Shown piece by piece: positions 3,409-28,212 of a DNA stretch of 64,000 nucleotides. A model generated the notes under the pieces. It had not been told where the DNA came from. It did no database searches and saw nothing but the letters and a program-made list of their open reading frames with translations. Position 1 is the stretch's first letter; each line of letters starts with the position of its first letter. A program made the position numbers and the translations under genes. Source of the stretch: a virus; IMG/VR virus record IMGVR_UViG_3300012944_000002, positions 1 to 64,000 of that record, one strand, 5' to 3'.

Positions 3409-4704
3409 ATGGCCGTCTCCAAGCGCCTCCGCTACGAGATCCTGCGGCGGGACAACTACACCTGCCGGTACTGCGGCGCCAAGGCGCCCGACGTACCGCT
3501 GCGCGTAGATCACGTCACGCCCGTGGCGCTCGGGGGAAGCGACGACCCGACCAACCTGGCGACGTCCTGCCACGACTGCAACGCCGGAAAGACCTCCAGC
3601 TCGCCCGACGCCACGCTCGTCGCCGACGTGGCCGATGGTGCACTCCGGTGGGCCGCGGCCATGGAGCAGGCAGCCGATGTGCTCCTCCGCCAGGACGAAC
3701 CGAAGGTCGCCTACCGCGAAGTGTTCGTCAGCGAGTGGAACCGCTGGGGCTACGGCGAAGGCGACGACCGCAAGAAGATCGAGCTCCCCAGCGACTGGAA
3801 GGCCGGCCTCGAACGCTTCCGTGTCGCCGGTCTGCCCGACTGGGCGTGGGCCGAGATCGTCGACGCGTCCATGGGCAACAAGAAGGTCAAGCATGAGAGC
3901 AAGTTCAAGTACTGCTGCGGCATCGCCTGGAACCAGGTCACGGTCATCCAGCACGAAGCCCGACGGTTGGTCGGTGCGAGCGCGTCGACCGCCGCTCCCC
4001 GAGACTCCACCGCCGACGCCATAGTGGCTGTCGTCCTGGCTGTGTGGACGGAAGTTACGGGCGAAGATCCGCAGCCCGATCAGCATAAGGAACTGGTACG
4101 TACTGCGCTTGCCTCGTATGCGGCCGAGCGCGAAGCCGAGGACATCGTGCGCGCCAGCCGCCAGGCCGCCTACTTCGGCCAATCCAGCATCGACGAGGGC
4201 TTCGAGGGGCTCGCGCGCGACGAGCAGTTCCGTGCGTACATCAACTGGCAGAACGCGTGGACGGCAACTGGAGAGGTCCCCCCGAACGAGGCCTTCACCC
4301 CTTTCTGGGAGACCTGCGAACGGCTCTTCGCTGCCGGCGTCGGCCTCCCCGAGGTGAAGACTGCGGCGTTCGTTGCCGGGTACCACCGTTCGACCGCGCC
4401 TCACTACGGCATCCCCGGCAAGACCCTGCGTGCGCTCGATATCCACCCCACCATCGAGCGGGCGACCGATGCATGGAAGCGCGCCTTCTACGGGTCGGCT
4501 GGCCGCTGGCCGGAGGCGGGCGAGGAGCGCAAATTCCGCGCTCAGCTTGAGCGGCTCGCGGACTGCGTATACCGCACCGGCGATGCCCTGAACGCCGCGA
4601 TCTCCGCCGGTGCGGTACAGGAAGCCGACATCTACTGGAACATGCCGCACCAGCTCTCTGCGCTGTTCGCCGCAGCCCTCCCGTTCGACGGGAGCAAGAA
4701 CTGA
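3409..4704 (+). CDS. HNH endonuclease domain protein with long C-terminal extension
   Basis: Track ORF 3337..4704. HNH motif CRYCGAK...DHVTPVALGGSDDPTNLATSCHDCNAGK. ATG 3409 is favoured because codons 3337-3408 have poor GC3. Confidence 0.8.
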   Translation: MAVSKRLRYEILRRDNYTCRYCGAKAPDVPLRVDHVTPVALGGSDDPTNLATSCHDCNAGKTSSSPDATLVADVADGALRWAAAMEQAADVLLRQDEPKVAYREVFVSEWNRWGYGEGDDRKKIELPSDWKAGLERFRVAGLPDWAWAEIVDASMGNKKVKHESKFKYCCGIAWNQVTVIQHEARRLVGASASTAAPRDSTADAIVAVVLAVWTEVTGEDPQPDQHKELVRTALASYAAEREAEDIVRASRQAAYFGQSSIDEGFEGLARDEQFRAYINWQNAWTATGEVPPNEAFTPFWETCERLFAAGVGLPEVKTAAFVAGYHRSTAPHYGIPGKTLRALDIHPTIERATDAWKRAFYGSAGRWPEAGEERKFRAQLERLADCVYRTGDALNAAISAGAVQEADIYWNMPHQLSALFAAALPFDGSKN

Positions 4705-5789
4705 TGGCGCGCATCCGTTCGATCAAGCCGGAGATGCGCACGTCGATCACGGTGTCGATGTGGCCGCGGGAGGTCCGGTACTTCTTCATCCTGCTGTGGG
4801 GCTACCTCGACGACTACGGCCGCGGCGTTGACGACGAACTGCTCATCGCCTCCGACTGCTTCCCGCGCGACCGGGACATCACGCCCGAGCGCGTTGACGC
4901 CTGGCTGGAGCTGATCGCCGACGCGGGGCCGCTGTGCCGCTACGAGGTGGACGGCCGGCAATACCTTCACGCCCCGAACTGGCGCGAGCACCAGAAGCCG
5001 TCTCACCCGACGCGGTCGAAGGTCCCGCCGTGCCCGGACGACGAGCCGGAGGACTTCAAGGCGTGGCGTGCGAAGAACCCGCAGCGTCTCCGGAATCGCT
5101 CGCGAAAGTCTCGCGAAGGATTCGAGAGCTTCCCGGAAGGTCTCCCAGCGGCCTCCCAGACCCCTTCTGGAGGGGCTCCGCAGGCCACTTTTGACGCCTC
5201 CGCGTCTGACGTGGGCACGACCAACGTTGAAGGCGTGCCCGGGGAGCCGTGGGTAGACGAACCCGCAGGTCATGGCGTGTACGAGAGCGCTCCGGATTCT
5301 TTCGCGAACAGCTCCGGAACCGCTCGGGATTCTTTCGCCCCTGAGCAAGGGAGCAAGGGAGCAAGGGAGCAAGGGGTTAAACCCCCCGCTGGCGCGCCTG
5401 CATCGACGACTGCACCTGGCGCCGTAGTGACCGGCGAGGGGATTCCAGACCGCATGGCGGCCGCGTTCATGGACCGCTTCGCCCGCGGCAACTCTTACCG
5501 ACTCAAGCCGGTCCGCCAGGTGATCGCCGACACGATCGCCAACCGCACCGACCCGGACGAGCTCTGGGAGGCGCTCATTCGCATCGGCGAATCGAGCAAG
5601 CCCGTCACCCCCGGCACCCTCCAGTTCGCCTTCCACGAGATCCGCAAGCCCAACAACGTCACCCAGCTGCGCCCGTCCACCACCGACGAACGCGTCGCCG
5701 CCGGCCTCGCCCTCGCCGCGAAGTACCGCGCCGAAGAGGAACGCGCCGCCCTCGAAGCCGCCCCGACCAAACCCCAGGAGTCAGCGTGA
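4704..5789 (+). CDS. replication initiator / replisome-organizer-like protein
   Basis: Track ORF 4704..5789 (TGATG overlap). N-terminus MARIRSIKPEMR. Lies just upstream of the helicase. A low-complexity central linker coincides with DNA repeats. Confidence 0.65.
   Translation: MARIRSIKPEMRTSITVSMWPREVRYFFILLWGYLDDYGRGVDDELLIASDCFPRDRDITPERVDAWLELIADAGPLCRYEVDGRQYLHAPNWREHQKPSHPTRSKVPPCPDDEPEDFKAWRAKNPQRLRNRSRKSREGFESFPEGLPAASQTPSGGAPQATFDASASDVGTTNVEGVPGEPWVDEPAGHGVYESAPDSFANSSGTARDSFAPEQGSKGAREQGVKPPAGAPASTTAPGAVVTGEGIPDRMAAAFMDRFARGNSYRLKPVRQVIADTIANRTDPDELWEALIRIGESSKPVTPGTLQFAFHEIRKPNNVTQLRPSTTDERVAAGLALAAKYRAEEERAALEAAPTKPQESA
5294..5385. repeat. ori-like repeat cluster inside the organizer gene
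   Basis: GGATTCTTTCGC at 5294-5305 and 5327-5338. Four perfect tandem octamers AGCAAGGG at 5344-5375. Palindrome GGGGTTAAACCCC at 5373-5385. Inverted partners TCGCGAAAG and TCGCGAAGG at 5100-5119. Confidence 0.5.
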
Positions 5790-6028
5790 CCCGCTCCGAG
5801 GCAGCCCAACTCCTCGCCGTCGCCGCCGGCATCGACCAGCGCACCATTGGCGACGCCGACGTCCAGGCGTGGCAGATGGTCCTTGCCGACATCCCCCTCG
5901 CTGATGCCATCGCCGCACTCACCGCCCACTACCGGGCCACCACCCGGCGCGTCATGCCCGCCGACATCGTCCAGCGCGTCAAGCCCACACCCGGCTACGA
6001 GGCCAACACCGAGCGGGGCGTTTTCTGA
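5786..6028 (+). CDS. hypothetical protein between organizer and helicase
   Basis: Track ORF 5786..6028. GTGA overlap upstream and TGATG overlap downstream. High GC3. Confidence 0.6.
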   Translation: MTRSEAAQLLAVAAGIDQRTIGDADVQAWQMVLADIPLADAIAALTAHYRATTRRVMPADIVQRVKPTPGYEANTERGVF

Positions 6029-7338
6029 TGGCCTTCGACGACGAGCAGCACATCAATCGGGTACCCCCCAACGACCTCGGCGCCGAGCAGGGTCTCCTCG
6101 GCGCCTGCTACTACAGCGTCCGCGTCCTCCAAGGCGCGCTCGAAGCCGTTCAAGGCGCCGACTACTACCGCCCGGCCCACACCACGATTCACAACGCCAT
6201 GGCCGCCATGCACGCCGCCGGCCAGCGCGTCGACCCCATCACCCTCGCGAAGTACCTCGCCGACGAAGGCACCCTCGGACTCGTAGGCGGCATCCCGTAC
6301 CTGCACACCCTCGCCACCGTCGGCCAGGGAGTCTTCAACGCCACCGAGTACGCCGAGATCGTCGTCGACCGGGCCCTGCGCCGCTCCCTCGTCGAGCACG
6401 GCATCGAAACCGCAGAGACCGCCTACGTCAACAGCGGCGAAACCTTCGCTCTCGTCGAACGGGCGGTTGCCCGCGCCCGCGAAATCCGCGACCGCGGCCA
6501 GGCCAACAGCGACCTGCCGACGCTGGATCTCCTCGACTTCGTTGCCGTTGAGGACACGTACAACTGGCTGATCCCCGACCTGCTGGAGTACGGCGACCGG
6601 CTCGTCCTCACCGCGAGCGAAGGTGGCGGCAAGAGCACGCTCCTGCGGCAGATCGCTGTCACCATCGCCGCCGGACTTCACCCGTTCCGGACCACGCAGT
6701 ACGTCGACCCCCACCGCGTCCTCGTCCTCGACTGCGAGAACGGCGCCCCCGTCTCCCGCCGCAAGTTCCGCCCCCTCCTCGACGCCGCCGCGAAGGTCAA
6801 CCGACCGCTGCAGCGCGGCATGTTCCACATCGAATGCCGCCCCGAAGGCTTGGACCTCACCCGGCCTGCCGACCGTGCCTGGCTCATGCGGCGCGTCGAA
6901 AAGCTCAAGCCCGAACTGTTGATCATCGGGCCGATCTACCGGCTCCACGCTGGCGACCCCAACTCCGAGGAACTGGCCCGCAAGGTCTCCGCCGTCATCG
7001 ACGAAGCCCGCGCCACCGCCAACTGCGCCGTCCTCATGGAAGCCCACGCCCCGCACCACAACGGCCAATCCGCGCACCGCAACCTCCGCCCTCTCGGCTC
7101 CAGCTTGTGGATGCGCTGGCCCGAGTTCGGCTTCGGGCTGCGCCCCGTCGAGGACGAGAAGTCCGCGTCCAACGCTGACGGCGCCCGCGGCCGGCGGTTC
7201 CTGCCCTGGCGCGGGATGCGCGACGAGCGCGCGTGGCCCGAGTTCATCAAGCAGGGCGAGCACTGGCCCTGGGAGGCGTACACGCCCATCGACACCGACC
7301 AGTTCACCGGGCTCTCGCAGACGGGAGCGATCTGGTGA
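6028..7338 (+). CDS. DnaB-like replicative helicase (DnaB N-terminal domain plus RecA/AAA_25-type ATPase)
   Basis: Track ORF 6028..7338. N-terminus PPNDLGAEQGLLGACYYS resembles the DnaB N-domain. Walker A in LTASEGGGKSTLL. Confidence 0.85.
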   Translation: MAFDDEQHINRVPPNDLGAEQGLLGACYYSVRVLQGALEAVQGADYYRPAHTTIHNAMAAMHAAGQRVDPITLAKYLADEGTLGLVGGIPYLHTLATVGQGVFNATEYAEIVVDRALRRSLVEHGIETAETAYVNSGETFALVERAVARAREIRDRGQANSDLPTLDLLDFVAVEDTYNWLIPDLLEYGDRLVLTASEGGGKSTLLRQIAVTIAAGLHPFRTTQYVDPHRVLVLDCENGAPVSRRKFRPLLDAAAKVNRPLQRGMFHIECRPEGLDLTRPADRAWLMRRVEKLKPELLIIGPIYRLHAGDPNSEELARKVSAVIDEARATANCAVLMEAHAPHHNGQSAHRNLRPLGSSLWMRWPEFGFGLRPVEDEKSASNADGARGRRFLPWRGMRDERAWPEFIKQGEHWPWEAYTPIDTDQFTGLSQTGAIW

Positions 7339-7604: not shown

Positions 7605-7618
7605 AAGGAACCGCCGCA

Positions 7619-9250: not shown

Positions 9251-9329
9251 CCACCCCGCCCCCGCCGGAACTCCACCCGCCCAACTCCCGCCCCGCCGAA
9301 CCCCACCCCAACCGAACGGAGACCCGGAC

Positions 9330-10751: not shown

Positions 10752-10792
10752 CTCACCCTCCCCGCCCGTCAACCCGAACCGAAAGGCCCACT

Positions 10793-11158: not shown

Positions 11159-11406
11159 GCGCCGCCGAGGTGGAGCCGTGGGCCGCGATGCGTGACGCGT
11201 CCTGGTACGCCCGGCCGAACACCCGCTCCGACAAGGCCATCCACGTGGCCGGCCGCACCGTCTCCGAGGGCGTCATGTCCCGCTGCGGCCGATCGCTCCT
11301 GGACGACGGGCTGACGTGGCCGCTCACCGACGCGCCCGCTGACGCGCGCTGCCGCAGCAACGGATGCCGCCAGGCGTGGCCCACGACGGACGGGGTGACC
11401 CGGTGA
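11155..11406 (+). CDS. hypothetical protein
   Basis: Tail of track ORF 10999..11406 from GTG 11155 (GTGA overlap). Confidence 0.5.
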   Translation: MSAAEVEPWAAMRDASWYARPNTRSDKAIHVAGRTVSEGVMSRCGRSLLDDGLTWPLTDAPADARCRSNGCRQAWPTTDGVTR

Positions 11407-12167
11407 GCGCGGGGCACGGGGCGGGGACGGCGGGGGGAGGGCTGCGTCTGCTGGCCGCGTTCTGCGGCGTCGGCGGCTGCACCCGCGGCTACCAGCAGGC
11501 CGGCTTCCACGTCACCGGCGTGGACATAGCCCCGCAGCCCCGGTACTGCGGCGACCGGTTCATCCAAGGCGACGCCGTGGCCTACATCCGCGAGCACGGC
11601 CACGAGTACGACCTGATCCACGCCGGGCCGCCCTGCCAGCACGACTGCACCCTGACCGCGGGCACCAACGCCGCCCGCCGCGGCCAGTACCCGGACCTGC
11701 TCGACCCGACGCGCGACGCCCTGGAGGCCACGGGCCGGCCCTACGTCATCGAGCAGCCCCCGGGCCGTGCCGCGAAGCGCATGCGCCTCGACGTGACGCT
11801 GTGCGGGGAGATGTTCGGCCTCGCCGTGATCCGGCACCGCAACTTCGAGTTGGGCGGCTGGGCCACCGCGGCGCCCGCGCACCTGAGGCACCGCGGCAGG
11901 GTCGCCGGCATGCGCCACGGCCAGTGGTTCACCGGCCCGTACTTCGCGGTGTACGGCGACGGCGGCGGCAAGGGCACGGTCGCGCAGTGGCAGCAGGCCA
12001 TGGGCATCGACTGGACGGACGTCCGCAAGGAGATCGCCGAGGCCATCCCGCCGGCCTACGCGCAGTGGCTCGGCGAGCGGGCCGCGGCGCACATCCTCGC
12101 CGCCCGCCGGCCGGTGCAGTTGGCGCTCGACCTGGACACCGCCCGCACCACGGGGGCCGCCGCGTGA
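11403..12167 (+). CDS. short C5-cytosine DNA methyltransferase-like protein
   Basis: Tail of track ORF 11364..12167 from GTG 11403 (GTGA overlap). Motif I LAAFCGVGG, motif IV HAGPPCQ. Later motifs are degenerate (AEAIPP). Confidence 0.7.
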   Translation: MSAGHGAGTAGGGLRLLAAFCGVGGCTRGYQQAGFHVTGVDIAPQPRYCGDRFIQGDAVAYIREHGHEYDLIHAGPPCQHDCTLTAGTNAARRGQYPDLLDPTRDALEATGRPYVIEQPPGRAAKRMRLDVTLCGEMFGLAVIRHRNFELGGWATAAPAHLRHRGRVAGMRHGQWFTGPYFAVYGDGGGKGTVAQWQQAMGIDWTDVRKEIAEAIPPAYAQWLGERAAAHILAARRPVQLALDLDTARTTGAAA

Positions 12168-12364
12168 GCTCCGTGGTGATCCACCGCATCCGCTGCGACG
12201 CCCCGTGGCCCGACGGAGGGCAATGCCTCACCGAGTGGGACGCCCCGTTCGAGACGCGCACCGCAACCGATCTGCGCGCCTGGCTGAAGACCAAGGGCTG
12301 GCACATCGGGATGCCCGGCGGCCGCGACATCTGCCCCGGCTGCTGGGCGGAGGGGCGGCGATGA
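12164..12364 (+). CDS. hypothetical Cys-rich protein
   Basis: Tail of track ORF 11801..12364 from GTG 12164 (GTGA overlap). Ends with CPGCW. Confidence 0.5.
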   Translation: MSSVVIHRIRCDAPWPDGGQCLTEWDAPFETRTATDLRAWLKTKGWHIGMPGGRDICPGCWAEGRR

Positions 12365-12501
12365 CCCCCACCGCCCCGTCGCGGCCCTCAGCGCCCCCGT
12401 AGGCCTCCTGGGGCCGCGCGCCCGTCCCCGAGTCGCCACGAACCCGCGGACGGCCCGCACAGACCCGCACGCCGATCCGACCAACCCACAAGGAGCCCCG
12501 C

Positions 12502-13038
12502 GTGCCCAAGACCTGCGACAACACGTCCGTCGGCGTGATCATCACGAACGCCGCCGGTGAGTACCTGATGTTCGACCGCAACACGTTCCCGTCCGGCGTC
12601 GCACCCGTCGCCGGTCACGTCGATACCCACGGCACGCTGCGGCAGGCCGCCGAGGCGGAGGTGCGTGAGGAAGTCGGGCTCGTAGTCCTCTCGCTGACCG
12701 AGGTGGCCACCGGGTGGCGCAACAACCGCTGCCGCCGCCAGCCCGGCCCGCGCGGCATCGGCCACCAGTGGACGATCTACCGCGCCATCGTCACCGGCGA
12801 CCTGGACCCGTCCGAGCGAGAGACCCGCAACGCCCGCTGGATCAACCACAGCGACCTGCAAACCCTCGCCGAACGCACCTCCACCTACGCCCGAGGCGGC
12901 CTCACCGACGCACAGTTCGCCAAGGCGCCCGGCCTCGAACCGGTCTGGGTGCAGTGGTTCTACGAGGCCGCCGCCATCGAGTTGGAGCCCGGCGAACTGC
13001 GGCTCATCGACCAGATCGCCAACGCCACCACCCCCTGA
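12502..13038 (+). CDS. NUDIX hydrolase
   Basis: Track ORF 12502..13038. RBS CAAGGAG. Nudix box GHVDTHGTLRQAAEAEVREEVGL. Confidence 0.85.
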   Translation: MPKTCDNTSVGVIITNAAGEYLMFDRNTFPSGVAPVAGHVDTHGTLRQAAEAEVREEVGLVVLSLTEVATGWRNNRCRRQPGPRGIGHQWTIYRAIVTGDLDPSERETRNARWINHSDLQTLAERTSTYARGGLTDAQFAKAPGLEPVWVQWFYEAAAIELEPGELRLIDQIANATTP

Positions 13039-13053
13039 CCCACCCCACCCCCT

Positions 13054-13081
13054 GCCGGCCCGGTCACCCACCCGGGCCGGC
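13054..13081 (+). terminator. GC-rich hairpin after the NUDIX gene
   Basis: Perfect 10-bp stem GCCGGCCCGG / CCGGGCCGGC with an 8-nt loop, 16 nt after the stop. No T-tract. Confidence 0.4.
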
Positions 13082-13099
13082 ACCCACCGAAGGAGCACC

Positions 13100-13585
13100 G
13101 TGTCCGCGTTCGACGACACCCTCGCCGCGCTGGAAGGCATCAGCCTCCAACGGCTCCGCGCCGAGGTCTACAACCTCCGCGCCATCAAGGCCTGGGCCCT
13201 GGACCAACTCGCCGTGGACTTCAAGCCCGGCGACCGCGTCACCATCACCAGCCCGAAGCCATCCGAAACGGGCGGCGGATGGAGCCACTACCGCGAGGCT
13301 CTCGCGCCCGGCCGCACCGGCAGCGCCGGGGAGATCACCTTCAATGAGCACGCCAACCGCTGGCAGTGCCTGGTCGGCATGGACCGCACCTGGTCTGTCC
13401 ACTGCGAAGAACGCTACGGCGCCCCGGACACGTACACCCGCTACTGGTTCGGTCCAGTCGGCGAGACCCCCGACGGTCACGAGCCGCCGTCCGGCTACGA
13501 CCAAGAGCGCCACCCCGAGGGCCAAATCAAGTACTTCGCGATGGACGTCGCGTGGCTCGCGTCCACCCCCATCAAAGGAGCCTGA
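13100..13585 (+). CDS. hypothetical protein
   Basis: Track ORF 13100..13585. RBS GAAGGAG. High GC3. Confidence 0.6.
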   Translation: MSAFDDTLAALEGISLQRLRAEVYNLRAIKAWALDQLAVDFKPGDRVTITSPKPSETGGGWSHYREALAPGRTGSAGEITFNEHANRWQCLVGMDRTWSVHCEERYGAPDTYTRYWFGPVGETPDGHEPPSGYDQERHPEGQIKYFAMDVAWLASTPIKGA

Positions 13586-13586
13586 C

Positions 13587-14096
13587 ATGGGCTACGCCCA
13601 CTACACCGTCGTCCGCAGCGACGGCAAAACCATCGAAGCCGGATACGGCGTTGACGCCGTCTGCGAAGAGCCCGGCTGCACCGAGGAGATCGACCGCGGC
13701 CTCGGCTGCCTCTGCGGGACCACGCCCGGCGACCCGGAGGACGGCTGCGGCAAGTACTTCTGCGGCAAGCACCTGTACGGCGCCAACCAGTGCGGTCCCT
13801 GCTCCGACGCCGCCGACGGGGCCAACGAGTGGGTCCATCCGGGCACTGGCGAAGAGTTCGACCTGCGCGACGACTTCCTGCCCGCCGACGCCCGCTACGA
13901 CGATCGCATGCCCGTCTGGCACCACACCGGGGAGTTCGCCCCGGACGGCGCCCCGGTTCTCGCCAAGATCGGATCGCACACCCGTCTGCCCGCCGACAGT
14001 CCGGACCGTCGAACCCTCGGCGAAGGCGACTGGGTGAATGCCGCGCTTCTCATGTACCGCCAGAGCACCACCACCCCGGAGGCGTCCGATGCCTGA
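13587..14096 (+). CDS. hypothetical Cys-rich protein
   Basis: Tail of track ORF 12714..14096 from ATG 13587 (AAAGGAG upstream). Contains CEEPGC...CLCG...CGKYFCGKH...CGPC. Confidence 0.6.
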
Positions 14097-14262
14097 TGCC
14101 TGCGCCGACCAGCTCTTCGGATGGACCTGCACCCTCCCGCCTGGACCGCACCCCCGCTGGCGGCACGTTGATGCCAACTCCGGGGCCTGGTGGACGCAGA
14201 GCGCCGAACCGCCGCACAGCAACCGCGAGCAGAGCGCAGCCGAGGAGGCGCCCCGTGCCTGA
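14089..14262 (+). CDS. hypothetical small protein
   Basis: Internal ATG 14089 of track ORF 14038..14262, overlapping the upstream stop by 8 nt. Confidence 0.4.
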
Positions 14263-14458
14263 CACGCCCGATCCCGCGACCAGCCGCCCGGAGCGGCCTC
14301 ACCGCCACGACTCCACCCCCGTTCTCAAAGCAGCCCTCGCCCGCGTTGGCCAGGATGCGAAGCGCTACGCCCTGACCGGGCCGAAGGTGCACGAGGACGC
14401 CCTGCACGTCATCGCCGACGAATTCCTCGACGAACTCCAGACCCGAGGTGAACTGTGA
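14255..14458 (+). CDS. hypothetical small protein
   Basis: Tail of track ORF 13790..14458 from GTG 14255, with GAGGAGG 7 nt upstream. Confidence 0.5.
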
Positions 14459-15384
14459 CCACCGAGCCCACCGTCCCCGCGCAGCCGACCGCCCCGCCCT
14501 CGTGCGCCGGGTGTGTGGGTTGCGGCGGACCCGACTGCGCCGAACGGCCGGACGCCGAGGGCCGTCCGTCGTGCACGTGGCCCAGTTGCCTCACTCCGGA
14601 GCAGCAGACCCAACTCGCCGATCAGGTGACCGCGTCGATGCTCGGCGAGGCCACCACGCCCATGCCCGACCAGCGGGTGGTGTGCGGATGCCGGGAGCCC
14701 GCGCCCGACCTTGGCCCCGCTGAGCTCACCGCCGAGGAGGCCCGCGCCGAGGTTGACCGCCTCAGCCTCGACCTGTACCGCGCCGGGGACGCGCTGCTGT
14801 TCGCCCGGGAGATGTGCGACCACGCCGAGGACGGGGGCCTGGCCGAGGTGCCGATCGCCCGCGTCCGGGAGTGGCTGGAGGGCGCCAAATGCGGGCGGGC
14901 GATCATGGCCGAACGGGGGCGGAGCATCACCGAGTTCGTCCAGCAGGCCGACGCCCCAACGGAGCTTGGCACCCCGGCCCCCAGTCCCAACGAAACCGGG
15001 GGCGGCGTTGGCACCAGCCACTCCTGCCCAAGCTGCGACCAGCCCGAGGCCATCGTCCCCAGCACCGAGACCGTGCGCGGCGGACGACGACTGTACCGAC
15101 CCGCCCCGTCCGCCGGCCGCGACACGATGCGCGAGGCCATCGCCGGGGGCGGCTGTGACAGCTGCGAGACGTGCGAACTGGCCACCGAGCTCGCCACAGA
15201 ACGCACCCGCACCCAGCAGGCCGGAATCCGGATCGCCGAACTGACCGCGCTGGTCGCAGCCCAGCAGCAGGTCATCGAACGCCTAGCCCGGGAAGCACTC
15301 GCGGCGATCGCCGTGCCCTACACGCCACGGGCACGCACCGCGCCGGTCGGGCCGGACGGACGGGGCGACGGGGGCGGGAAGTGA
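14455..15384 (+). CDS. hypothetical protein with multiple Cys clusters and coiled-coil segment
   Basis: Track ORF 14455..15384 (GTGA overlap). Contains CAGCVGCGGPDC, CPSC and CDSCETC. Confidence 0.6.
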   Translation: MTTEPTVPAQPTAPPSCAGCVGCGGPDCAERPDAEGRPSCTWPSCLTPEQQTQLADQVTASMLGEATTPMPDQRVVCGCREPAPDLGPAELTAEEARAEVDRLSLDLYRAGDALLFAREMCDHAEDGGLAEVPIARVREWLEGAKCGRAIMAERGRSITEFVQQADAPTELGTPAPSPNETGGGVGTSHSCPSCDQPEAIVPSTETVRGGRRLYRPAPSAGRDTMREAIAGGGCDSCETCELATELATERTRTQQAGIRIAELTALVAAQQQVIERLAREALAAIAVPYTPRARTAPVGPDGRGDGGGK

Positions 15385-15623
15385 CCGCCGAGCCCGAAGC
15401 CCACCCCACCCGCGTCGAGTACGTCGTCGAACGCGCCCTGTCCGACGGCCGCTGGATCGTGGAGAGCATCAGCCCCGCGCCCACCCCCGAGCGGGCGCTC
15501 GCCGACGCCGCATGGTTCATGGGCGACCCGGAGCTCGGCGGCGGCAACTACCGCACCGTCTGCCGAACCATCACCAGCACCGTCGTCGCCGAACACCCCG
15601 GCAAGCAAGGAGACCGGTCATGA
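15381..15623 (+). CDS. hypothetical protein
   Basis: Tail of track ORF 15171..15623 from GTG 15381 (GTGA overlap). Confidence 0.5.
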   Translation: MTAEPEAHPTRVEYVVERALSDGRWIVESISPAPTPERALADAAWFMGDPELGGGNYRTVCRTITSTVVAEHPGKQGDRS

Positions 15624-16153
15624 CCGAACCCCGCCGCTTCCATCTCCAGCGCACCACCGACATCACCGGCGTGTCCGGTACTGGCCGTGTGGCCGACGGC
15701 GTGCTCTGGCCCGACCAGACCGTCAGCATCCACTGGCGCGGTGACCGCCCCAGCACCGTGATCTGGCCCCGCCTCGAAGACGCCGAGGCGGTCCACGGCC
15801 ACGGTGGCGCGACGCGCATCGTGTGGGACGACGACCGTCTTGCCGCTCGCCTGGGCCGCATCGCCGCCGCGCACTCCAAGTACGTCGACCAGCACGGCGG
15901 GACCACCGGCGAATGCGTCGAATGCGGCAACCGCTGGCCCTGCCCTACTTACGCCTGGGCCACCGAGGACCGTGGGCCGCTCGCGACGTGGGACCCGGCC
16001 GACGACGAGCCGCCGCCCGCCTGCCCCGCCGGACTCCTCTCCGCCGACCCGGACGTGCCCGACGAGCGCTGCATCGTAGAAGGCCCCCACGACCGGCACG
16101 TCAGCCGCATCGGGACGCGCTGGACCAACCCTGACGACGGGAGTGACCTGTGA
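15620..16153 (+). CDS. hypothetical protein
   Basis: Tail of track ORF 15512..16153 from ATG 15620 (ATGA overlap). Contains CVECGNRWPC. Confidence 0.55.
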   Translation: MTEPRRFHLQRTTDITGVSGTGRVADGVLWPDQTVSIHWRGDRPSTVIWPRLEDAEAVHGHGGATRIVWDDDRLAARLGRIAAAHSKYVDQHGGTTGECVECGNRWPCPTYAWATEDRGPLATWDPADDEPPPACPAGLLSADPDVPDERCIVEGPHDRHVSRIGTRWTNPDDGSDL

Positions 16154-16281
16154 GCCACCGCTGCCGGTCGTGGCGCTGGCACCTGTGGCGGCCCGTGCGC
16201 TGCACCTGGCCGGCCGCCCACCGGACCCGCAGCAAGTGGCACTGCCACGAGCCGAGCGGGCGCACCTGGAGGAACCGGTGA
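16150..16281 (+). CDS. small Trp/Cys/His/Arg-rich peptide (43 aa)
   Basis: GTG 16150 overlaps the upstream stop (GTGA). This frame has nearly 100% G/C in third positions, whereas the track frame 16143.. is only about 75% over the same bases. Confidence 0.4.
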   Translation: MSHRCRSWRWHLWRPVRCTWPAAHRTRSKWHCHEPSGRTWRNR

Positions 16282-16445
16282 CCAGACCCCCGCGCGACCC
16301 CGAGGTGGAGCGGGTGTTCGGCCCCCCGGTCGGCCCGGACTGCGACCCCGAGTGGCCACCTCCCCGCGACACCGACGTACTGCCCGACATCGGCGACTAC
16401 CAGGAGGAACCCCATGATCTGCGCCCCATGCGGCCGAGCCGCTGA
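16278..16445 (+). CDS. hypothetical small acidic/Pro-rich protein
   Basis: GTG 16278 (GTGA overlap with the 16150 ORF) lies in the frame of track ORF 16143..16445. GC3 becomes high only from here on. Confidence 0.4.
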   Translation: MTRPPRDPEVERVFGPPVGPDCDPEWPPPRDTDVLPDIGDYQEEPHDLRPMRPSR

Positions 16446-16566
16446 CCAGCGCGCACCCCGCGACCAGCACTGTGACGACCCCGGGTGTGCCTGCGGGCAC
16501 CGGGTGGAGCGGTACGGGACGGTCACGGCGAAAAGCGCGGCCGGACAGGAGGCGAAGGCGCGGTGA
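16414..16566 (+). CDS. small zinc-binding protein (50 aa)
   Basis: ATG 16414 lies 6 nt after AGGAGG (16402-16407). Translation MICAPCGRAADQRAPRDQHCDDPGCACGHR.... The stop overlaps the next GTG. Below the track size cutoff. Confidence 0.55.
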   Translation: MICAPCGRAADQRAPRDQHCDDPGCACGHRVERYGTVTAKSAAGQEAKAR

Positions 16567-16748
16567 CTACCCACCTGTACGAGACGCCGCAGACGGAGAC
16601 CGACCCGCCCGGCGAGGAGCGGATTCGCATCGAGACCAGGCCCACCGTCCAGACGTGGCTGCCGGGCAACCCGGTCATCCCGGGCAAGGTCTGGTGCTGG
16701 TCGCACCGGGCGTGGGAGAAGCTGTCGGACCACGAGGAGACCAAGTGA
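16563..16748 (+). CDS. hypothetical small protein
   Basis: Tail of track ORF 16485..16748 from GTG 16563 (GTGA overlap). Confidence 0.5.
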   Translation: MTTHLYETPQTETDPPGEERIRIETRPTVQTWLPGNPVIPGKVWCWSHRAWEKLSDHEETK

Positions 16749-19006: not shown

Positions 19007-19579
19007 TCAGCACGCCGGCCCGATGGTCACCTGTACCCCCTGGGGACGCTTCGCAGGCTCAGCGTCGGCGCTGTACCCCGGGTTGTCGCTCGCCCAAGCC
19101 GCTTCCGTGCAGTAGCCGGCGTCGGTCGGCGACGTCTCCTGAAGCCACTGGAACGTGGGCTCGCAGGTCGCCAGGTTGTAGTTCCCCAGCACCTGAGCAC
19201 TGTCGGGCAGGTCGGGCACCTTCATCCAGACGACGACGTCCCGCTCTGGGCCGCAAGTTTTCTCGGTGGGCGAGGCCGTGGTCGGTGGGTTCGTGGTCGG
19301 CGCCGTGGTTGCCGGTTCCGGTTTGGGCGACAGCGTGGTGGCGGTCGGCGCCGATGGCCTGCCGGAGCTGGGCGCCGCCGAGGAACTCGACTCGGCCGCG
19401 CTCGCCGCGGCCTTCGCGATCGGCTTGCTGTCGCCCTTCTTCGGCGGTCCGGCGATCGTGCCGATGATGAACATCAGCACGAGGAACCCGACGACTCCCG
19501 ATACTGACCACACCGTGACCTTCTTCCGCCGCGACCAACTACCCGGCCGGCCGCGCCCTGATCCATCGTTCAGCGTCAT
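19007..19579 (-). CDS. membrane-anchored secreted protein with Ser/Ala/Pro/Thr linker
   Basis: Track ORF 19007..19594 minus. ATG at 19579 is preferred. Has a TM helix VWSVSGVVGFLVLMFIIGTIAG, a low-complexity linker, then a Cys-containing domain. Confidence 0.6.
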   Translation of the reverse strand: MTLNDGSGRGRPGSWSRRKKVTVWSVSGVVGFLVLMFIIGTIAGPPKKGDSKPIAKAAASAAESSSSAAPSSGRPSAPTATTLSPKPEPATTAPTTNPPTTASPTEKTCGPERDVVVWMKVPDLPDSAQVLGNYNLATCEPTFQWLQETSPTDAGYCTEAAWASDNPGYSADAEPAKRPQGVQVTIGPAC

Positions 19580-19699: not shown

Positions 19700-20956
19700 C
19701 TATCCGAACTGAAAGCCCGGGTGGCATTTCGTGCAGGGGTGATCCGTCTTGTAGCCGTTACTGTCGATGCGTTCGCGCATGCGGCCGATGGGTTCGCACT
19801 CGACGTCCCCGCACCATGGGATCCCCGCGGCCTCGGTCGGGTTGGCCGGCGTGGTCCAGACGTCGTTGGTGTACGGCCGGTGGGGTTCGCGGCGGCCGAG
19901 GTCGGCGGCGACGGCAGCCCAGCCGGCCACCGTGCTGTCCGTGCCCCCGCCCATGCGGGCTCGGGCGCGAGCGGTGGCCTGTTCCCACATCCCGCCGGCC
20001 GGAGCTTCCTGGCGACCCGCGCCGAGGATGTCCTCGACCGTCAGGTTCGCGTACTCCTCGGCGGTCGGCATCCGGCCACGGACGCCACCACGGGCAGCAG
20101 GAGGAGCGGGGAGGGGTTCGGCGTCGGGCAGCACCTCGGGCTTCAACCGGTGGGCGTACACGGCGGCTGGTGAGTCCACGGCGGCCGTCCCGAGGTCGAG
20201 GTAGAGCGCCAGCCCGTCCACCGTCCAGCCGGACGCCAGAGCGGCCGTCAGCCGATCGGCGATCGTCCGTCGCTGCCGCTTGTCTGGCGTCTTGCCACGG
20301 TAGTCGAGAGCGGACGCGATCTCTTCGGCTGTGGATCTCGAATCATCGAGAGAACCGCCGCCTCCGCCCTCCTCGGTGTCAGGCGCGACTGCGGATGGGT
20401 CCGTGGAGGGCTCAGCCACGGAGGAGGAGGTAATACCCGAGGGGGTTTTAGAAGAGGGGTAAAGAGGGGTTGGGGTCACCTGAGAGGTGACCCGTTCTGC
20501 ATCCCAGAGGTGACCCGTTTCCTCTGACAGGTGACCCTCTCCATCCGAGAGGTGACCCGTTTCCAGCCCATCGCCCTCAGAATGGGTCACCTGAGAGGTG
20601 ACCCTCTCGACTCTCGCGCACTGCCCCAAGAACCCGTCATGCGGCGCCTCGGGACAGAGCGGCGCGATGCGGTAGACGGCAGCCTGCCCAGGGAACCCCG
20701 ACAGCTCACGGCCGCCGTGCACTGCGTAGGCCAAGACGCCCTTCTTCATCAGCTTGCCGATGGCGTTCTTCCATCCGCCAGCGCTCTTGCCCGTGCGCTT
20801 GAGGATGTACGACTGGTGAACGCCCCCCTTGGGCCAGGTCTCGCGGGTTCGGTCGTTGGCGTTCTCGGCGAGGACGAGCAGGTCATTCCGCTCACCAGCC
20901 GTCAGGCCCGCGTCCTGCCAGTGATCGAGGACTTCAACGATGATCCTGATCCCCAT
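19700..20956 (-). CDS. winged-helix initiator-like protein (AICE/plasmid Rep-like) with C-terminal zinc motif
   Basis: Track ORF 19700..20998 minus. ATG at 20956 is preferred. N-terminal wHTH-like domain, a central repeat RVTSQVT...GHLS x3, and a C-terminal PWCGDVECEP...HPCTKCHP. Carries an iteron array in its own coding DNA. Confidence 0.6.
   Translation of the reverse strand: MGIRIIVEVLDHWQDAGLTAGERNDLLVLAENANDRTRETWPKGGVHQSYILKRTGKSAGGWKNAIGKLMKKGVLAYAVHGGRELSGFPGQAAVYRIAPLCPEAPHDGFLGQCARVERVTSQVTHSEGDGLETGHLSDGEGHLSEETGHLWDAERVTSQVTPTPLYPSSKTPSGITSSSVAEPSTDPSAVAPDTEEGGGGGSLDDSRSTAEEIASALDYRGKTPDKRQRRTIADRLTAALASGWTVDGLALYLDLGTAAVDSPAAVYAHRLKPEVLPDAEPLPAPPAARGGVRGRMPTAEEYANLTVEDILGAGRQEAPAGGMWEQATARARARMGGGTDSTVAGWAAVAADLGRREPHRPYTNDVWTTPANPTEAAGIPWCGDVECEPIGRMRERIDSNGYKTDHPCTKCHPGFQFG
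20473..20604. repeat. iteron array (five GGTGACCC direct repeats, two 21-bp palindromes)
   Basis: GGTGACCC at 20486, 20509, 20530, 20551 and 20597, spaced 23, 21, 21 and 46 bp. GGGTCACCTGAGAGGTGACCC at 20473-20493 and 20584-20604. Confidence 0.7.
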
Positions 20957-21109
20957 CAGGCGCGTCCCCGCGATCGAGTCGAGACGCTCGGAGCGCACCG
21001 GCCGAAGCCAGGAATGGACAGAGTCATTGCGCGCAGGCGCCTTTCGTGCCGGTGGGGTGACCTGTTGATCGGCGGCCGGGCGGCTTTACGTCGCCCGGCC
21101 GTGGGGTGT

Positions 21110-21735: not shown

Positions 21736-22245
21736 TCAGGTGACGGTCGCGCCGATCTCTGCGACTGCGGCCTCTACGACTTCAACGGGATCACCGAGCG
21801 GCGTGAAGTCGAACCATTCGCCGCGCACTCGATGTCCTGCGAACCGCCGATGCAGGGCCCTCTCGTAGGGACCTTTCGTCACCCAGAGAAGGGACAACAC
21901 CATGGGATGCCCGATCTGAAGAAGGGCGAGACGCTTCTTCGGATCCTTAGCCCATCCGATCTTCACCAGACCTGAACCCTTGATCCCGATCAGGTAGGTG
22001 TGAGACGAGTCGGGTTGGTAGCTGCTCCCGAGACGCTTCTGTCGCGGCGGCTCCACTTCCCTGGGGGCGGCTTTGGTGTGATCGCTCTGACAGTGATGGG
22101 TCGGCGGGAATCGCAGATCGTCCACGGAGATGGGCGGCGAGTCCGAAGTGGCGTCCAGGTCGAGGCCGAGGCGCCGAGGGTCCTCCCAGGTATACGCGGG
22201 GCGCTCGTGTCGAGCTGGCAGGGTTGGGTGTAGCGGATCGGGCAT
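21736..22245 (-). CDS. T5orf172 / GIY-YIG-superfamily domain protein
   Basis: Track ORF 21736..22245 minus. YLIGIKGSGLVKIGWAKDPKKRLALLQ...YERALHRRFAGHRVRGEWFDF. Confidence 0.75.
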   Translation of the reverse strand: MPDPLHPTLPARHERPAYTWEDPRRLGLDLDATSDSPPISVDDLRFPPTHHCQSDHTKAAPREVEPPRQKRLGSSYQPDSSHTYLIGIKGSGLVKIGWAKDPKKRLALLQIGHPMVLSLLWVTKGPYERALHRRFAGHRVRGEWFDFTPLGDPVEVVEAAVAEIGATVT

Positions 22246-22409: not shown

Positions 22410-23159
22410 TTGCCCAGCAAGCCCGAGCGCGGGCCGCGCCGCCATCAGGAGATCGCGGACGAGCTGCGCGCGAAGATCCTCAGCGGCGAGCTAGCACCGG
22501 GCTCGAAGCTCGAAGGCGAGAATGGCCTCATGGAGCGGCATGTGGCCGCTCGATCCACAGTGCGGCAAGCCCTGGACGCCCTGCGCGCCGAAGGCCTCAT
22601 CGAGAGCAAGCAGGGCGTCGGCGTCACGGTCCGGGCCTTCCGTCCGATCAGACGGCCCGCAGTTCAGCGCCTCTCCTCAGAGGTGTGGCACGCCGGGCGG
22701 TCAATCTGGGACGTGGACCTAGAGGACCGCCCGCGTCGCGTTGAGGTGGACGTCAACGAGGTCGATGCGCCTGATCATGTGGCCCAACTCCTGGAGTCCG
22801 ACGAGCGCATGTGCCGCCGCAGCCGGCGCTTCCATGTGGAGGGGCGGCTCATCCAGACGGCCGTCTCGTATGTGCCAATGAGCTTGGCGGCTGGCACGGC
22901 CATCACCCAGCCCGACACCGGCCCTGGTGGCATGTATGCCCGACTTGCCGAGATCGGCCATGCGCCTGCGCGGTTCAAGGAGGAGGTGAGGACGAGGATG
23001 CCCACGCCCCAGGAGGCGGCCGATTTCAGCTTGGGCCCCGGTACTCCCGTCTTCCAGATCATCCGCATCGCGGCAGACCAGAATGACCGCCTCGTAGAAG
23101 TCAACGAGATGACGCTCGACGGGTCCAACTACATCCTGGAGTACGTCTTCTCCTCCTGA
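22410..23159 (+). CDS. GntR-family transcriptional repressor (HTH plus UTRA domain), KorSA-like
   Basis: Track ORF 22410..23159. TTG start after AGGAGG. N-terminus IADELRAKILSGELAPGSKLEGENGLMERHVAARSTVRQALDALRAEGLIESKQGVG. Confidence 0.85.
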   Translation: MPSKPERGPRRHQEIADELRAKILSGELAPGSKLEGENGLMERHVAARSTVRQALDALRAEGLIESKQGVGVTVRAFRPIRRPAVQRLSSEVWHAGRSIWDVDLEDRPRRVEVDVNEVDAPDHVAQLLESDERMCRRSRRFHVEGRLIQTAVSYVPMSLAAGTAITQPDTGPGGMYARLAEIGHAPARFKEEVRTRMPTPQEAADFSLGPGTPVFQIIRIAADQNDRLVEVNEMTLDGSNYILEYVFSS

Positions 23160-26204: not shown

Positions 26205-26414
26205 GTGCGCGCCATCCTCGGCGGCATCCTGTTCGGCCTCACCGCCGCCTACCCCACGCTCGCCGCGCTGCTCTGGCACGCCACCAGTTGGGCCGCGTCC
26301 CCCGCGGTGGCCGCGGCCGCCTGGTCGCTGCACCAACCCGCCGCCGTCGTAGCGCTCGCCGTGGCCGTCGGCTGGCGGTACGTCGTGCGGCGCATGAGGG
26401 GGCGGACGGCGTGA
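26205..26414 (+). CDS. small membrane protein
   Basis: Track ORF 26205..26414. GTG start after GAAGGAG. Two hydrophobic helices. Confidence 0.55.
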   Translation: MRAILGGILFGLTAAYPTLAALLWHATSWAASPAVAAAAWSLHQPAAVVALAVAVGWRYVVRRMRGRTA

Positions 26415-27433
26415 ACGAGAAGCCCCCGTTCAACCTCGTCGAGTCCTTCACCCTCGCGCCCGGGCTCACGCCGGCCGCCACCCCGCGCGGCGACCGGTGG
26501 CGCACCGTCGGCCACTGGCTGCGCGACACCGGCCTCGGTGTCGTCGGGTTCCTCATCGTCCTCGTCGTCGCCGTGTCCGGCTGGACCGCCAGCTTCATCG
26601 GCCTGCACTCGTTCGGCATGACCCACATGGGCTTGACTGCGCACACCGGCTGGCTGGTGCCCGCGACGTTCGACGGCGCCCCCCTCGGTCTGTCCCTCGT
26701 CGTGTTCCGCGCGTCGATCCATGGCCGCAGCGCCACCGTGTGGCGGCTCCTCATCGTCGTCTTCACAGGCCTGTCGTCGTGGATCAACTACCAGCACATC
26801 AGCGACCCCACCGGCCGGTGGATCGCCTCGTTCATGCCGCCCGCCGCAGTGCTGCTCTTCGAGGGCCTGATGTCCGAGGCCCGCGCCGCGGCAGCCCGGC
26901 GCGACGGGCAGGAACGGCCCCGCCTCCACCCGCTTCGGTGGGTCATCGACCGGTCCGGAACCTGGGCGATCTACCGCGCCTACGTCCTCGGCATCGAACT
27001 CCCCGAGGCGCTCAAGGAAGCGGCCGGAGAGGTCGCGGCGAGCGCCGAGAGCGAGCGCCCCATGGACGCTCAGCCCGAGCGCGCCCCCGACGCTCACACC
27101 GAGGCCCCGGTGAGCGCTCACGGTGAGCGCCCAAGCGACGCTCAGCCCACGCGCTCATCCAGGACCAACCGCGGGCGCTCAGCGGGCGGCCAGAAGAGCG
27201 CGCCCAGGAAGACCACAACCGAGCGCCGCCGTGAGCGCGTCCGTGCGCTCTACGACGAGCTGGACAAGCGGCCCGAGTGGACCGAGATCCGTGACGTCCT
27301 CGTTGAAGCGAAGCTCGCCCCCAGGGCGATCTCCCGCCCCACATGCCAGCGGATCCGCGACGCCGTCGAGAAGAACGAACCGCACCTCGCCGCCCTCGGC
27401 CAGACCAACGTCCGCACACTCACCGGAAGCTGA
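26411..27433 (+). CDS. DUF2637-like membrane protein with C-terminal DNA-binding-type tail (Spd-like)
   Basis: Tail of track ORF 26288..27433 from GTG 26411 (GTGA overlap). Four TM helices in the N-terminal half, then a charged linker and a basic C-terminus. Confidence 0.65.
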   Translation: MNEKPPFNLVESFTLAPGLTPAATPRGDRWRTVGHWLRDTGLGVVGFLIVLVVAVSGWTASFIGLHSFGMTHMGLTAHTGWLVPATFDGAPLGLSLVVFRASIHGRSATVWRLLIVVFTGLSSWINYQHISDPTGRWIASFMPPAAVLLFEGLMSEARAAAARRDGQERPRLHPLRWVIDRSGTWAIYRAYVLGIELPEALKEAAGEVAASAESERPMDAQPERAPDAHTEAPVSAHGERPSDAQPTRSSRTNRGRSAGGQKSAPRKTTTERRRERVRALYDELDKRPEWTEIRDVLVEAKLAPRAISRPTCQRIRDAVEKNEPHLAALGQTNVRTLTGS

Positions 27434-27442
27434 ATCACCGCG

Positions 27443-28210
27443 ATGGATCAACTCACCTGCCAAGCCCAGCGCGACGGCGCGCCCTGCATCCACGCGGCGA
27501 CGCTGGTCGTGCCGGTTCGGCTGTGCGACGAGCACAAGTTGCAGGTCGCGGCGTTCGTCGTGCCGGAGATGCTGGTCGGCGCGTTGCGTGATGCTCGCGC
27601 GCTGAGTAGCCGAACCCTGCCGCCTGACCTTGCGCACCTGGTGGCGAGCGCGCAGGCCGCGCAGATGCCGGCGACGGACCCGCATTCGGCGCTGGTGTAC
27701 TTCATGGCCAACGGCGGCCGGGTCAAGATCGGATACACGAAGTCCCTGTTCAGCCGCGTGCAGTCGCTATCGCTCAGGGAAGACGCGGTGCTACTTCTGC
27801 TGCACGGCGGGATGGATCTGGAGCGGGCGCTGCACGCGAAGTTCGGGGCCTATCGCGTGGCCGACAGCGAGTGGTTCGAACTCGCCCCGGACGTCGTCCA
27901 CTTCATCTCCGGCAAGGGGCCGAAGCACCGCGCCGGCGCCGCGCCCCGTCCGACCAGGGCAAAGGCCCGAGCCAGTCGTTCGCGCGCAGCCAAGAAGGCA
28001 CCGCGCCGATCTCTCGATGAGTGGGTGGATGCCGCCGCGCCGATCTTCCATATCGAGTTCGCCCGACTCCGTCGAAACCCCACGGCTACCGAGTTTGCAT
28101 CCGCACTCGCCGCCGCCGGCCTCGGCGTCGTCTCCGACTCCACAGCCAAGAACATCCGCGCCGAAATCCTCGACCGCGCGCCCCTGCCCAGCCTCGACGG
28201 AGAAAGCTGA
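27443..28210 (+). CDS. T5orf172 / GIY-YIG-superfamily domain protein with basic C-terminal tail
   Basis: Track ORF 27443..28210. VYFMANGGRVKIGYTKSLFSRVQSL...LERALHAKFGAYRVADSEWFEL. Confidence 0.75.
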   Translation: MDQLTCQAQRDGAPCIHAATLVVPVRLCDEHKLQVAAFVVPEMLVGALRDARALSSRTLPPDLAHLVASAQAAQMPATDPHSALVYFMANGGRVKIGYTKSLFSRVQSLSLREDAVLLLLHGGMDLERALHAKFGAYRVADSEWFELAPDVVHFISGKGPKHRAGAAPRPTRAKARASRSRAAKKAPRRSLDEWVDAAAPIFHIEFARLRRNPTATEFASALAAAGLGVVSDSTAKNIRAEILDRAPLPSLDGES

Positions 28211-28212
28211 CC

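Follow-up and report, generated by a model that had tools for sequence, protein, structure and literature searches.

In phage lambda, the N-terminal domain of the initiator protein O binds the iterons of the origin and its C-terminal part recruits, the region of the iterons codes for the linker, and the iterons are followed by an easily opened, strand-asymmetric tract. Among the relatives of lambda, the N-terminal domain and the iterons vary together and the C-terminal part is common. In the case of Bacillus phage SPP1, binding sites of G38P (oriL) lie within the gene of this protein, which acts together with the loader G39P and the DnaB-type helicase G40P. The four iterons of lambda occupy nt 349-433 of the 900-nt O gene, with spacings of 20, 24, and 23, and precede an AT-rich tract (PMC7466680, a study in which iterons of Stx phages were also recoded synonymously); oriL-dependent replication of SPP1 was the subject of a separate study (PMC5737612). 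Among Streptomyces replicons, the locus of plasmid pWTY27 comprises RepA as well as direct and inverted repeats that are bound by Rep (PMC3583192), and pSLE1 is an 86.4-kb circular plasmid-prophage (PMC4487206). Here, we describe an array of phased repeats located inside a minus-strand, initiator-like gene of a Streptomyces phage-like genome, in a stretch of 64,000 nt (positions 1 to 64,000 of the IMG/VR virus record IMGVR_UViG_3300012944_000002), referred to below as the window. Results of our analysis indicate, with a probability that we put at about 0.75, that the array and the CT-rich tract adjoining it constitute a replication origin inside the gene of its own initiator, in a lambda-O-like layout.

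Iteron array within the initiator-like gene

The core motif GGTGACCC occurs at five plus-strand positions (20486, 20509, 20530, 20551, and 20597, at intervals of 23, 21, 21, and 46) and in the inverted orientation at 20473 and 20584. An earlier note, made from the sequence of the window, had reported the five direct copies, and their starts, spacings, and location within the gene proved exact. The same applies to the repetitive RVTSQVT peptide that they encode and to the placement of the first and the last copy in 21-bp palindromes (GGGTCACCTGAGAGGTGACCC), each of which is completed by one of the inverted copies. Seven of the 14 GGTGACCC sites of the window fall within 132 bp (20473-20604); the mean in shuffled sequences is 5.09 sites per 64 kb, and none of 100 shuffles reaches 14. 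When all sites are aligned, the repeating unit measures about 21 bp, and its consensus in the subfamily to which the window belongs (gaaaGGGTCACCTnnnaGgT) is an imperfect palindrome of the form GGGTCACC-N5-GGTGACCC. Units 1 and 5, numbered in gene order, are perfect palindromes, and units 2-4 retain one arm (Table 1). Altogether, the array occupies nt 352-484 of the gene and encodes the peptide ERVTSQVT..ETGHLSDGEGHLSEETGHL..ERVTSQVTPTP. A single one-mismatch core (GGTGACCT) is present also at 21056-21063 of the plus strand, some 100 bp upstream of the start codon in what may be the promoter, and could be autoregulatory, but 18 homologous loci showed no conserved copy upstream of the gene.

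Directly after the last iteron, the gene strand is pyrimidine-rich over 50-60 bp. The GC content of this tract is 0.55-0.58, as compared to about 68-75% in its flanks, and its GC skew is +0.74 to +0.82. It contains three CCCCTC motifs (GAGGGG on the plus strand), at 20439, 20454, and 20464, of a type that is strongly under-represented in the whole window (36 GAGGGG/CCCCTC found vs. 75 +/- 9 expected). The sequence AAGAGGGGT occurs only twice in the window, at 20452-20460 and 20462-20470; the two copies had been seen beside the array in the earlier note, which placed the end of the second one base short, at 20469. A tract of ACCCCT(A/C/T)C periodicity follows the last iteron in 19 of 19 homologous loci. 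In one of the three subfamilies of homologues described below (subfamily C), the frame of the same tract DNA (GACCCCTACTCC) is another one, so that it encodes PDPYS and not TPTP. We regard the CT-rich tract as the strongest candidate for an unwinding element.

Selection on the DNA sequence of the array

The protein has 140 homologues, mostly Streptomyces "hypothetical proteins". Their loci, 19 from GTDB genomes and others from further contigs, allowed us to compare the array at the level of DNA and peptide in subfamilies A (that of the window), B, and C. Every informative homologue contains 7-11 copies of a subfamily-specific core in the same place of the gene (about nt 290-570), in three frames and both orientations. 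In the window, GGGTCACC of the gene strand is read in frame 1 as (E)RVT(S) and three times in frame 2 as GHL, and its complement is read in frame 0 as QVT. The core of subfamily A as a whole gives the peptides ERVTS, GHL, QVT, GDP, and NGSP, and that of subfamily C (GGGTCCGG) gives KGPG, KGSGN, RVRE, PDP, and RTQ. In homologous loci of 11-13.5 kb, the core is nearly confined to the array, as exemplified by subfamily B (8 of 8, 8 of 8, and 7 of 8 copies).

Codon usage points in the same direction. Third codon positions have a GC content (GC3) of about 90% elsewhere in these genes, which falls to 50-60% in the array of the window and to 30-60% in the arrays of homologues. Residues that are identical between homologues are encoded by the same codon in 96-98% of cases within the array and the flanking tract, as opposed to 65-71% outside (Fisher p from 1.8e-6 to 6.6e-9 for pairs of subfamily B; p<0.05 in 12 of 16 pairs). 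The high-GC background makes this constraint easy to read, as a collapse of GC3, frozen synonymous sites, and one motif in three frames.

The sequence comparison thus indicates that selection acts on the DNA rather than on the peptide. The varying frames and orientations of the core, the fall of GC3, the freezing of synonymous sites, and the confinement of the core to the array make the peptide repeat a by-product of a DNA signal, which may be tolerated within the coding sequence because the encoded linker is predicted to be intrinsically disordered. The earlier note had named the finding that would speak against an origin, namely, homologues that keep the peptide with the DNA motif synonymously scrambled. 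The opposite was found: the core is kept and synonymous sites are frozen, and it is the frame and orientation of the core, and the peptide read from it, that vary. That the repeats serve the protein, with a repetitive flexible linker (GHL/RVTSQVT) under selection and the regularity of DNA left behind by recent duplication, is hardly credible. The repeat is indeed visible in the peptide and kept among close homologues, but one DNA core that is read in three frames and both orientations to give unlike peptides, palindromy, which has no meaning for a peptide, strongly non-optimal codon usage, and the predicted disorder of the segment all contradict such an explanation. Selection of the repeat on the peptide only is excluded by the variation of frame and orientation, the GC3 fall, and the frozen synonymous sites.

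Protein architecture and co-variation with the iterons

The gene was assigned to start at an ATG, and not at the GTG at 20998 proposed by the open reading frame (ORF) lister, since homologues begin with MGIRLIVEV. Residues 1-110 of its product are modelled by AlphaFold2 with high confidence (predicted local distance difference test, pLDDT, 88-97) as a winged helix of the topology H-H-H-H plus beta hairpin, which agrees with the description of the gene as winged-helix and initiator-like in the earlier note. The recognition helix is predicted at about aa 59-71 (GGWKNAIGKLMKK). A Foldseek search with the full model returned only generic winged helices of MarR, ArsR, and CodY (probability up to 0.99, E about 0.2). 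The array and the CT-rich tract encode a segment of low pLDDT between two confidently modelled domains, and the former description of the repeats as part of an interdomain linker is consistent with this prediction. Three parts make up the C-terminal module: a confidently modelled helical domain (LDYRGK..GW..YLDLG..AVYAHRL; aa about 200-275), then a variable region, and finally a predicted zinc ribbon (aa about 380-415). This module alone has no fold relative in PDB (Foldseek, E >1), and a PDB sequence search with a 99-sequence profile gave nothing meaningful. At the nucleotide level, tblastn detected no match among 50,697 phage records and two partial matches only in 72,556 plasmids, and megablast of the region 17-27 kb against plasmids gave nothing relevant.

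The predicted recognition helix changes together with the core, the first four bases of which, GGGT, are constant. The helix WKNAIGKL is associated with the core GGGTCACC (subfamily A, including the window), WRNAIT(A/G)L with GGGTCATC, WRISINRL with GGGTTA[T/G]C (subfamily B), and SRYEVLKAL with GGGTCCGG (subfamily C); the unit consensus is GGGTTAtCTGaCaGcT in subfamily B and GGGTCCGGgaacccCG in subfamily C. A comparison of homologues for co-variation of protein and repeats had been proposed in the earlier note, and its outcome is that helix and core change together across subfamilies.

The C-terminal module of the window protein is joined in other proteins to at least four other, unrelated types of N-terminal domain. 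In three such relatives, which were read at the DNA level, different palindromic repeats are present at the same linker position: CCCAAC-N-GTTGGG in six copies of 21-bp phase, CATGGCCC / GGGCCATG, and CCGGTTGA / TCAACCGG. The alternative N-terminal domains match PHROG families of initiators (P0031, phrog_4707, 4e-14; P0040, phrog_391 "O-like", 1.5e-9; the pSLE1 protein, phrog_4707, 3.6e-10). Phased direct repeats, constraint at the DNA level, and co-variation with the predicted initiator, by which an iteron origin is recognized, are all found at this locus.

Replication genes associated with the protein family

Genes of the replisome neighbour several relatives of the window gene. A complete DnaB is encoded directly downstream in L007 and L009, two loci of Parafrankia/Frankia (Pfam DnaB_C, E 1e-97 and 4e-96), and in two others (L008 and L010), tblastn matches to DnaB are found at the same downstream position. 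In five of five Streptomyces loci of subfamily C (L011-L015), the gene directly downstream encodes an IstB/DnaA-type AAA+ protein (DnaC-like loader). A phmmer search of 1.84 billion proteins with the 115-aa N-terminal domain gave 161 representative clusters, in which the domain is nearly always N-terminal and is followed, in nearly all representatives, by a short repetitive stretch. Among 98 distant representatives, 48 match phrog_270 "replication initiation protein", the best of them at 7.5e-37, and 38 match phrog_391 "replication initiation O-like"; the protein of L011 matches phrog_270 at 2.4e-23. The helicase or loader genes downstream of relatives and these matches, which extend to the window protein transitively, support the initiator role ascribed to it in the earlier note.

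A relative of subfamily B is the only initiator candidate among Pfam-annotated genes of an integrative island of about 10 kb. This island (L035; Streptomyces sp. RLB3-5 chromosome, CP041650, about 6375-16731) is flanked by host transporter genes and contains, in this order, an integrase gene, an HTH_3 repressor gene, an HTH_17 (xis-like) gene, an unannotated 257-aa gene, the gene of the homologue (subfamily B, 557 aa), several small ORFs, and another integrase gene. In its makeup, it is similar to small integrative elements or satellites. Another homologue of the N-terminal domain, with KGP-type repeats, is encoded at about 5004-6130 of the 41.9-kb, circular, phage-like plasmid pPaSha2 of Pseudonocardia alni (L027, CP052773), where the PLSDB gene table lists no coding sequence. 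Past the repeats, its frame apparently shifts, as might be expected of a pseudogene, of an error in sequencing, or of programmed frameshifting.

Genomic surroundings

The window is included in a phage-like genome of about 86.3 kb, which is represented by two independently assembled, differently permuted metagenome contigs of 86,329 and 86,265 bp (ENA ERZ27253147 k141_3893502 and JGI Ga0137409_10000067). Their different start points suggest that the genome is circular or terminally redundant. Its size is comparable to that of pSLE1, pZL12 (90.4 kb), and two Streptomyces plasmids of about 88 kb with the same C-terminal module. Phage genes of this genome encode the portal, capsid, and tape-measure proteins and a lysin, and two tyrosine-recombinase-like genes are located past the window end. 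A DUF2637 protein and an FtsK/TraB-like protein, also encoded here (Table 1), are typical of Streptomyces conjugative plasmids and actinomycete integrative and conjugative elements (AICEs). This suggests a phage/conjugative-element hybrid of the pZL12 kind. With tblastn, none of the queries taken from pSLE1 and pZL12 (ParA, ParB, DciA, and Tra proteins) had a match in 77.6 kb of the genome.

Table 1. Features of the array locus and of selected neighbouring genes (positions in the window)
Feature	Position	Strand	Remarks
Initiator-like gene, 418 aa, 1257 nt	19700..20956	-	ATG at 20956, stop 19700-19702; ORF and homologue alignment
Predicted N-terminal winged-helix DNA-binding domain, aa 1-115	20612..20956	-	AlphaFold2; Foldseek; phmmer
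Iteron 1 (gene order)	20584..20604	both	perfect palindrome GGGTCACCTGAGAGGTGACCC; encodes ERVTSQVT, two frames, both orientations
Iteron 2	20538..20558	-	21-bp unit, core GGTGACCC 20551-20558 (+), second arm degenerate; GHL, frame 2
Iteron 3	20517..20537	-	core at 20530-20537
Iteron 4	20496..20516	-	core at 20509-20516
Iteron 5	20473..20493	both	second perfect 21-bp palindrome; last repeat before CT-rich tract
Predicted disordered linker, aa 119-199	20360..20602	-	pLDDT <50; encoded by iterons and CT-rich tract
Candidate DNA-unwinding element	20420..20472	-	pyrimidine-rich on gene strand, 50-60 bp, directly after last iteron
C-terminal module	19703..20359	-	helical domain, variable region, Cys4-type zinc ribbon
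Second, canonical replication module	4704..7338	+	361-aa "replication initiation protein", 80-aa protein, DnaB-like helicase
GntR/UTRA regulator	22410..23159	+	Pfam; divergent from block of the initiator-like gene; conserved neighbour
DUF2637 protein and 782-aa FtsK/SpoIIIE-like (FtsK/TraB-like) protein	26288-27433, 28021-30369	+	between regulatory block and phage structural genes

The initiator-like gene belongs to a minus-strand block of 4-5 genes, beside the divergent gene of the GntR/UTRA regulator and an HTH_17 gene. The synteny with the GntR/UTRA gene is repeated in L021, L022, the Streptomyces anulatus chromosome (L034), where a close relative resides, pSLE1, and pZL12 (phiZL12). The next gene downstream encodes a 168/195-aa product, in which a hydrophobic segment reads like a membrane anchor, with no Pfam match. 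The initiator of the second replication module matches PHROG 2149 (E 1.7e-30) and 1408 (7e-26), and its helicase corresponds to Pfam DnaB and AAA_25. The gene of this 361-aa initiator (4704-5789, plus strand) has mid-gene repeats of its own at 5088-5128, 5290-5341, and 5343-5374. They include CTCCGGA(A/T) and TCGCGAA motifs in two inverted clusters, 190 bp apart, and then a tandem (GAGCAAGG)x4, and may represent a second origin within an initiator gene of the same genome. Homing-endonuclease-like genes are frequent in this genome: two T5orf172/MUG113 (GIY-YIG-like) genes, one at 21736-22245 of the window (minus strand) and one of 255 aa (L020, 2747-3514), are accompanied, close to the replication genes, by endonuclease genes of the HNH/NUMOD4 and HNH types. 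In pSLE1, a GIY-YIG gene directly follows the homologue of the initiator-like gene. A promoter/terminator scan and a search of Rfam found nothing.

Proposed function and alternative explanations

We infer the following course of initiation at the array. The N-terminal winged helix, probably in a form of dimers, would bind the five 21-bp units, whose direct cores, mostly 21-23 bp or about two helical turns apart, would be presented on one face of the helix, to give an O-some-like complex. This nucleoprotein complex would promote the opening of the adjacent tract of lower GC content, strand asymmetry, and CCCCTC periodicity. The C-terminal module, with its helical domain and zinc ribbon, might then recruit the replication machinery, i.e., a helicase, a loader, or a primase, and replication would start.

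Several results weigh against this reading. The whole protein has no Pfam (E<=0.01), NCBIfam, or PHROG match, and its N-terminal domain matches phrog_270 and phrog_1032 below the threshold (E 0.19 and 0.42), over the cognate region. With a phrog_270 match of this strength, its place in the broad winged-helix group of phage initiators and replisome organizers would be due to transitive homology only. The comparison with lambda O by hhalign gave a probability of 0.2%, and neither Pfam Phage_rep_O nor PHROG 277 was matched (lambda O itself matches phrog_277 at 1e-152). Thus, the lambda O/ori architecture proposed in the earlier note holds as an analogy of layout and not as family membership. The tract that would correspond to an AT-rich one has a GC content of about 55% and is not AT-rich in absolute terms, and Streptomyces DnaA boxes were not found near the array. 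A recruiting role of the C-terminal module is a guess, as this module has no recognisable fold relative. Finally, helicase or loader coupling was found in relatives of the family and not beside the window copy, whose DnaB gene is 13 kb off and on the other strand, and the genome already has a module of an initiator and DnaB, so that the protein of the array gene might be an accessory one.

This last point leads to an alternative that we consider possible, though doubtful, in which the array is the site of an accessory or alternative initiator feeding the replisome of the second module. The genome would then have one system with two origin-binding proteins, used, e.g., in early vs. late replication or in theta vs. 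post-excision replication, and not an autonomous replicon. It would fit the presence of both genes in one genome of about 86 kb, the lack of an adjacent helicase or loader gene, the direct coupling of Frankia relatives to DnaB, and the absence of pSLE1/pZL12-related ParA/ParB from the 77.6 kb. Moreover, the pairing of the initiator-like gene with DnaB about 9 kb away, on the opposite strand, is repeated in the S. anulatus chromosome. It is less easily reconciled with the subfamily-B relative being the sole initiator candidate among Pfam-annotated genes of the island with integrase, repressor, and xis genes, with the location of the gene in a divergent block beside a regulator rather than in an early operon, and with the presence of the C-terminal module at the syntenic place of pSLE1, a true circular plasmid-prophage (PMC4487206). 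A replicon separate from the second module, as the earlier note had suggested, is plausible, and we give it roughly even odds. More speculatively, the gene with its internal origin may be the plasmid-state or post-excision replicon of the phage/conjugative hybrid, apart from a lytic module of the second initiator and DnaB. The N-terminal domain and iterons would then form a cassette of specificity and incompatibility, swapped among elements with one recruiting C-terminal module in common, and the CCCCTC tract, of 10-bp periodicity, an undescribed unwinding or single-stranded DNA-binding element that suits origins of high-GC actinomycetes.

Two further roles of the protein would not involve initiation, and both are unlikely because of the helicase and loader neighbourhood of the family and its matches to initiators. 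Structural matches to MarR/ArsR-type regulators, the regulatory-looking divergent block with GntR and HTH_17 neighbours, and the one-mismatch site upstream of the start would suit a transcription factor (a repressor or autoregulator) for which the intragenic repeats are operators or a roadblock of its own operon. Iteron-binding initiators are commonly autoregulators as well. We find this role improbable, as the 5-11 phased sites in the coding region together with a conserved unwinding-type tract are unlike the layout of operators, the core is not conserved upstream across the 18 loci, and the C-terminal module is swapped among initiator-type N-terminal domains. Some parS, incompatibility, and pac sites likewise consist of phased repeats, direct and inverted, to which a winged-helix protein binds, and the arrangement described here would fit a centromere-like, incompatibility-only, or pac site too. 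Packaging of pZL12-type elements is reported to start from semi-random ends. A ParA-type partner was, however, not found adjacent to the gene, and the terminase and portal genes are 20 kb away, which makes this possibility smaller still. An origin within the gene of its initiator therefore remains our preferred explanation.

If it is correct, a family of "hypothetical proteins" of Streptomyces and Frankia gains a probable function, as initiators that bind an origin, and a probable cis site. The family is also a clear natural case of coding sequence with a likely replication signal written over it, and the locus gives a handle on origin opening in genomes of 70% GC, and bears on lytic vs. maintenance replication in phage-plasmid hybrids of the pZL12/pSLE1 type. 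Having no fewer than four iteron specificities and five or more types of N-terminal domain on one C-terminal module, the family potentially offers a set of compatible replicons for Streptomyces vectors.

Comparison with known systems

Among Streptomyces theta-plasmids, pWTY27, pFP1, pFP11, and SCP2 have Rep/iteron loci that similarly consist of a Rep protein and repeats. The iterons of pWTY27 are, however, located in adjacent non-coding sequence and not within rep (PMC3583192), in contrast to the intragenic array of the window. The Rep type of iteron plasmids with two winged helices (RepA/RepE/Pi type; Rep_3) was not matched in Pfam, and the window protein is unlike the tandem-winged-helix Rep, since its model has only one winged helix, at the N terminus, and continues with the disordered linker and the unrelated helical/zinc-ribbon module.

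The comparison with pSLE1 and pZL12 concerns the syntenic gene; tblastx of the window against these plasmids gave mostly high-GC noise and was not used. In pSLE1, where the order is GntR gene, small ORF, and homologue, the product shares the C-terminal module only. The syntenic gene of pZL12, pZL12.82 (L032, GQ919031, 18632-20179), contains five mid-gene copies of TTCCAGGAT, three of them spaced by 21 bp, at about 19196-19305. They encode FQDSGT between an N-terminal HTH-like (helix-turn-helix) region and a Cys-rich C terminus, and no homology of pZL12.82 to the window protein was detectable by hhalign. Unlike these plasmids, the genome of the window has no ParAB like theirs in the part covered.

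The phage initiators of PHROG 270, 1032, 391, and 8540 have a winged-helix N-terminal domain to which that of the window protein appears homologous in a transitive way, and relatives in its family show the classical order of initiator and then loader or helicase, as in phage replisome-organizer systems. The window protein differs from those of the four PHROG families in its C-terminal module and in having no adjacent loader or helicase gene. In SPP1, the three genes are contiguous, in contrast to the distant DnaB gene of the window, and the protein family is unrelated as far as tested.

The closest counterpart of the locus is ori-lambda. As in lambda and the lambdoid phages (Stx phages, P22 gene 18), the array is found midway along the initiator gene, and it is similar to the 4-6 partly palindromic iterons of about 19-21 bp, spaced by about 20-24 bp, in those phages (PMC7466680). 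The likeness extends to the proposed division into a binding N-terminal and a recruiting C-terminal part, the linker-coding position of the iterons, and the co-variation of the latter with the N-terminal domain among relatives that share the C-terminal part, and may extend to the strand-asymmetric flanking tract as a candidate unwinding element. In contrast to lambda, a P-like loader gene is missing downstream, the C-terminal module includes a zinc ribbon and is without a known relative in fold, the tract has about 55% GC with CCCCTC periodicity in a genome of a high-GC actinomycete host, and the position of the gene is in a divergent block rather than in an early rightward operon. The best-supported view is that the array gene and its origin represent a functional analogue of ori-lambda, built on an initiator from outside the O family and equipped with a C-terminal module that would be new.

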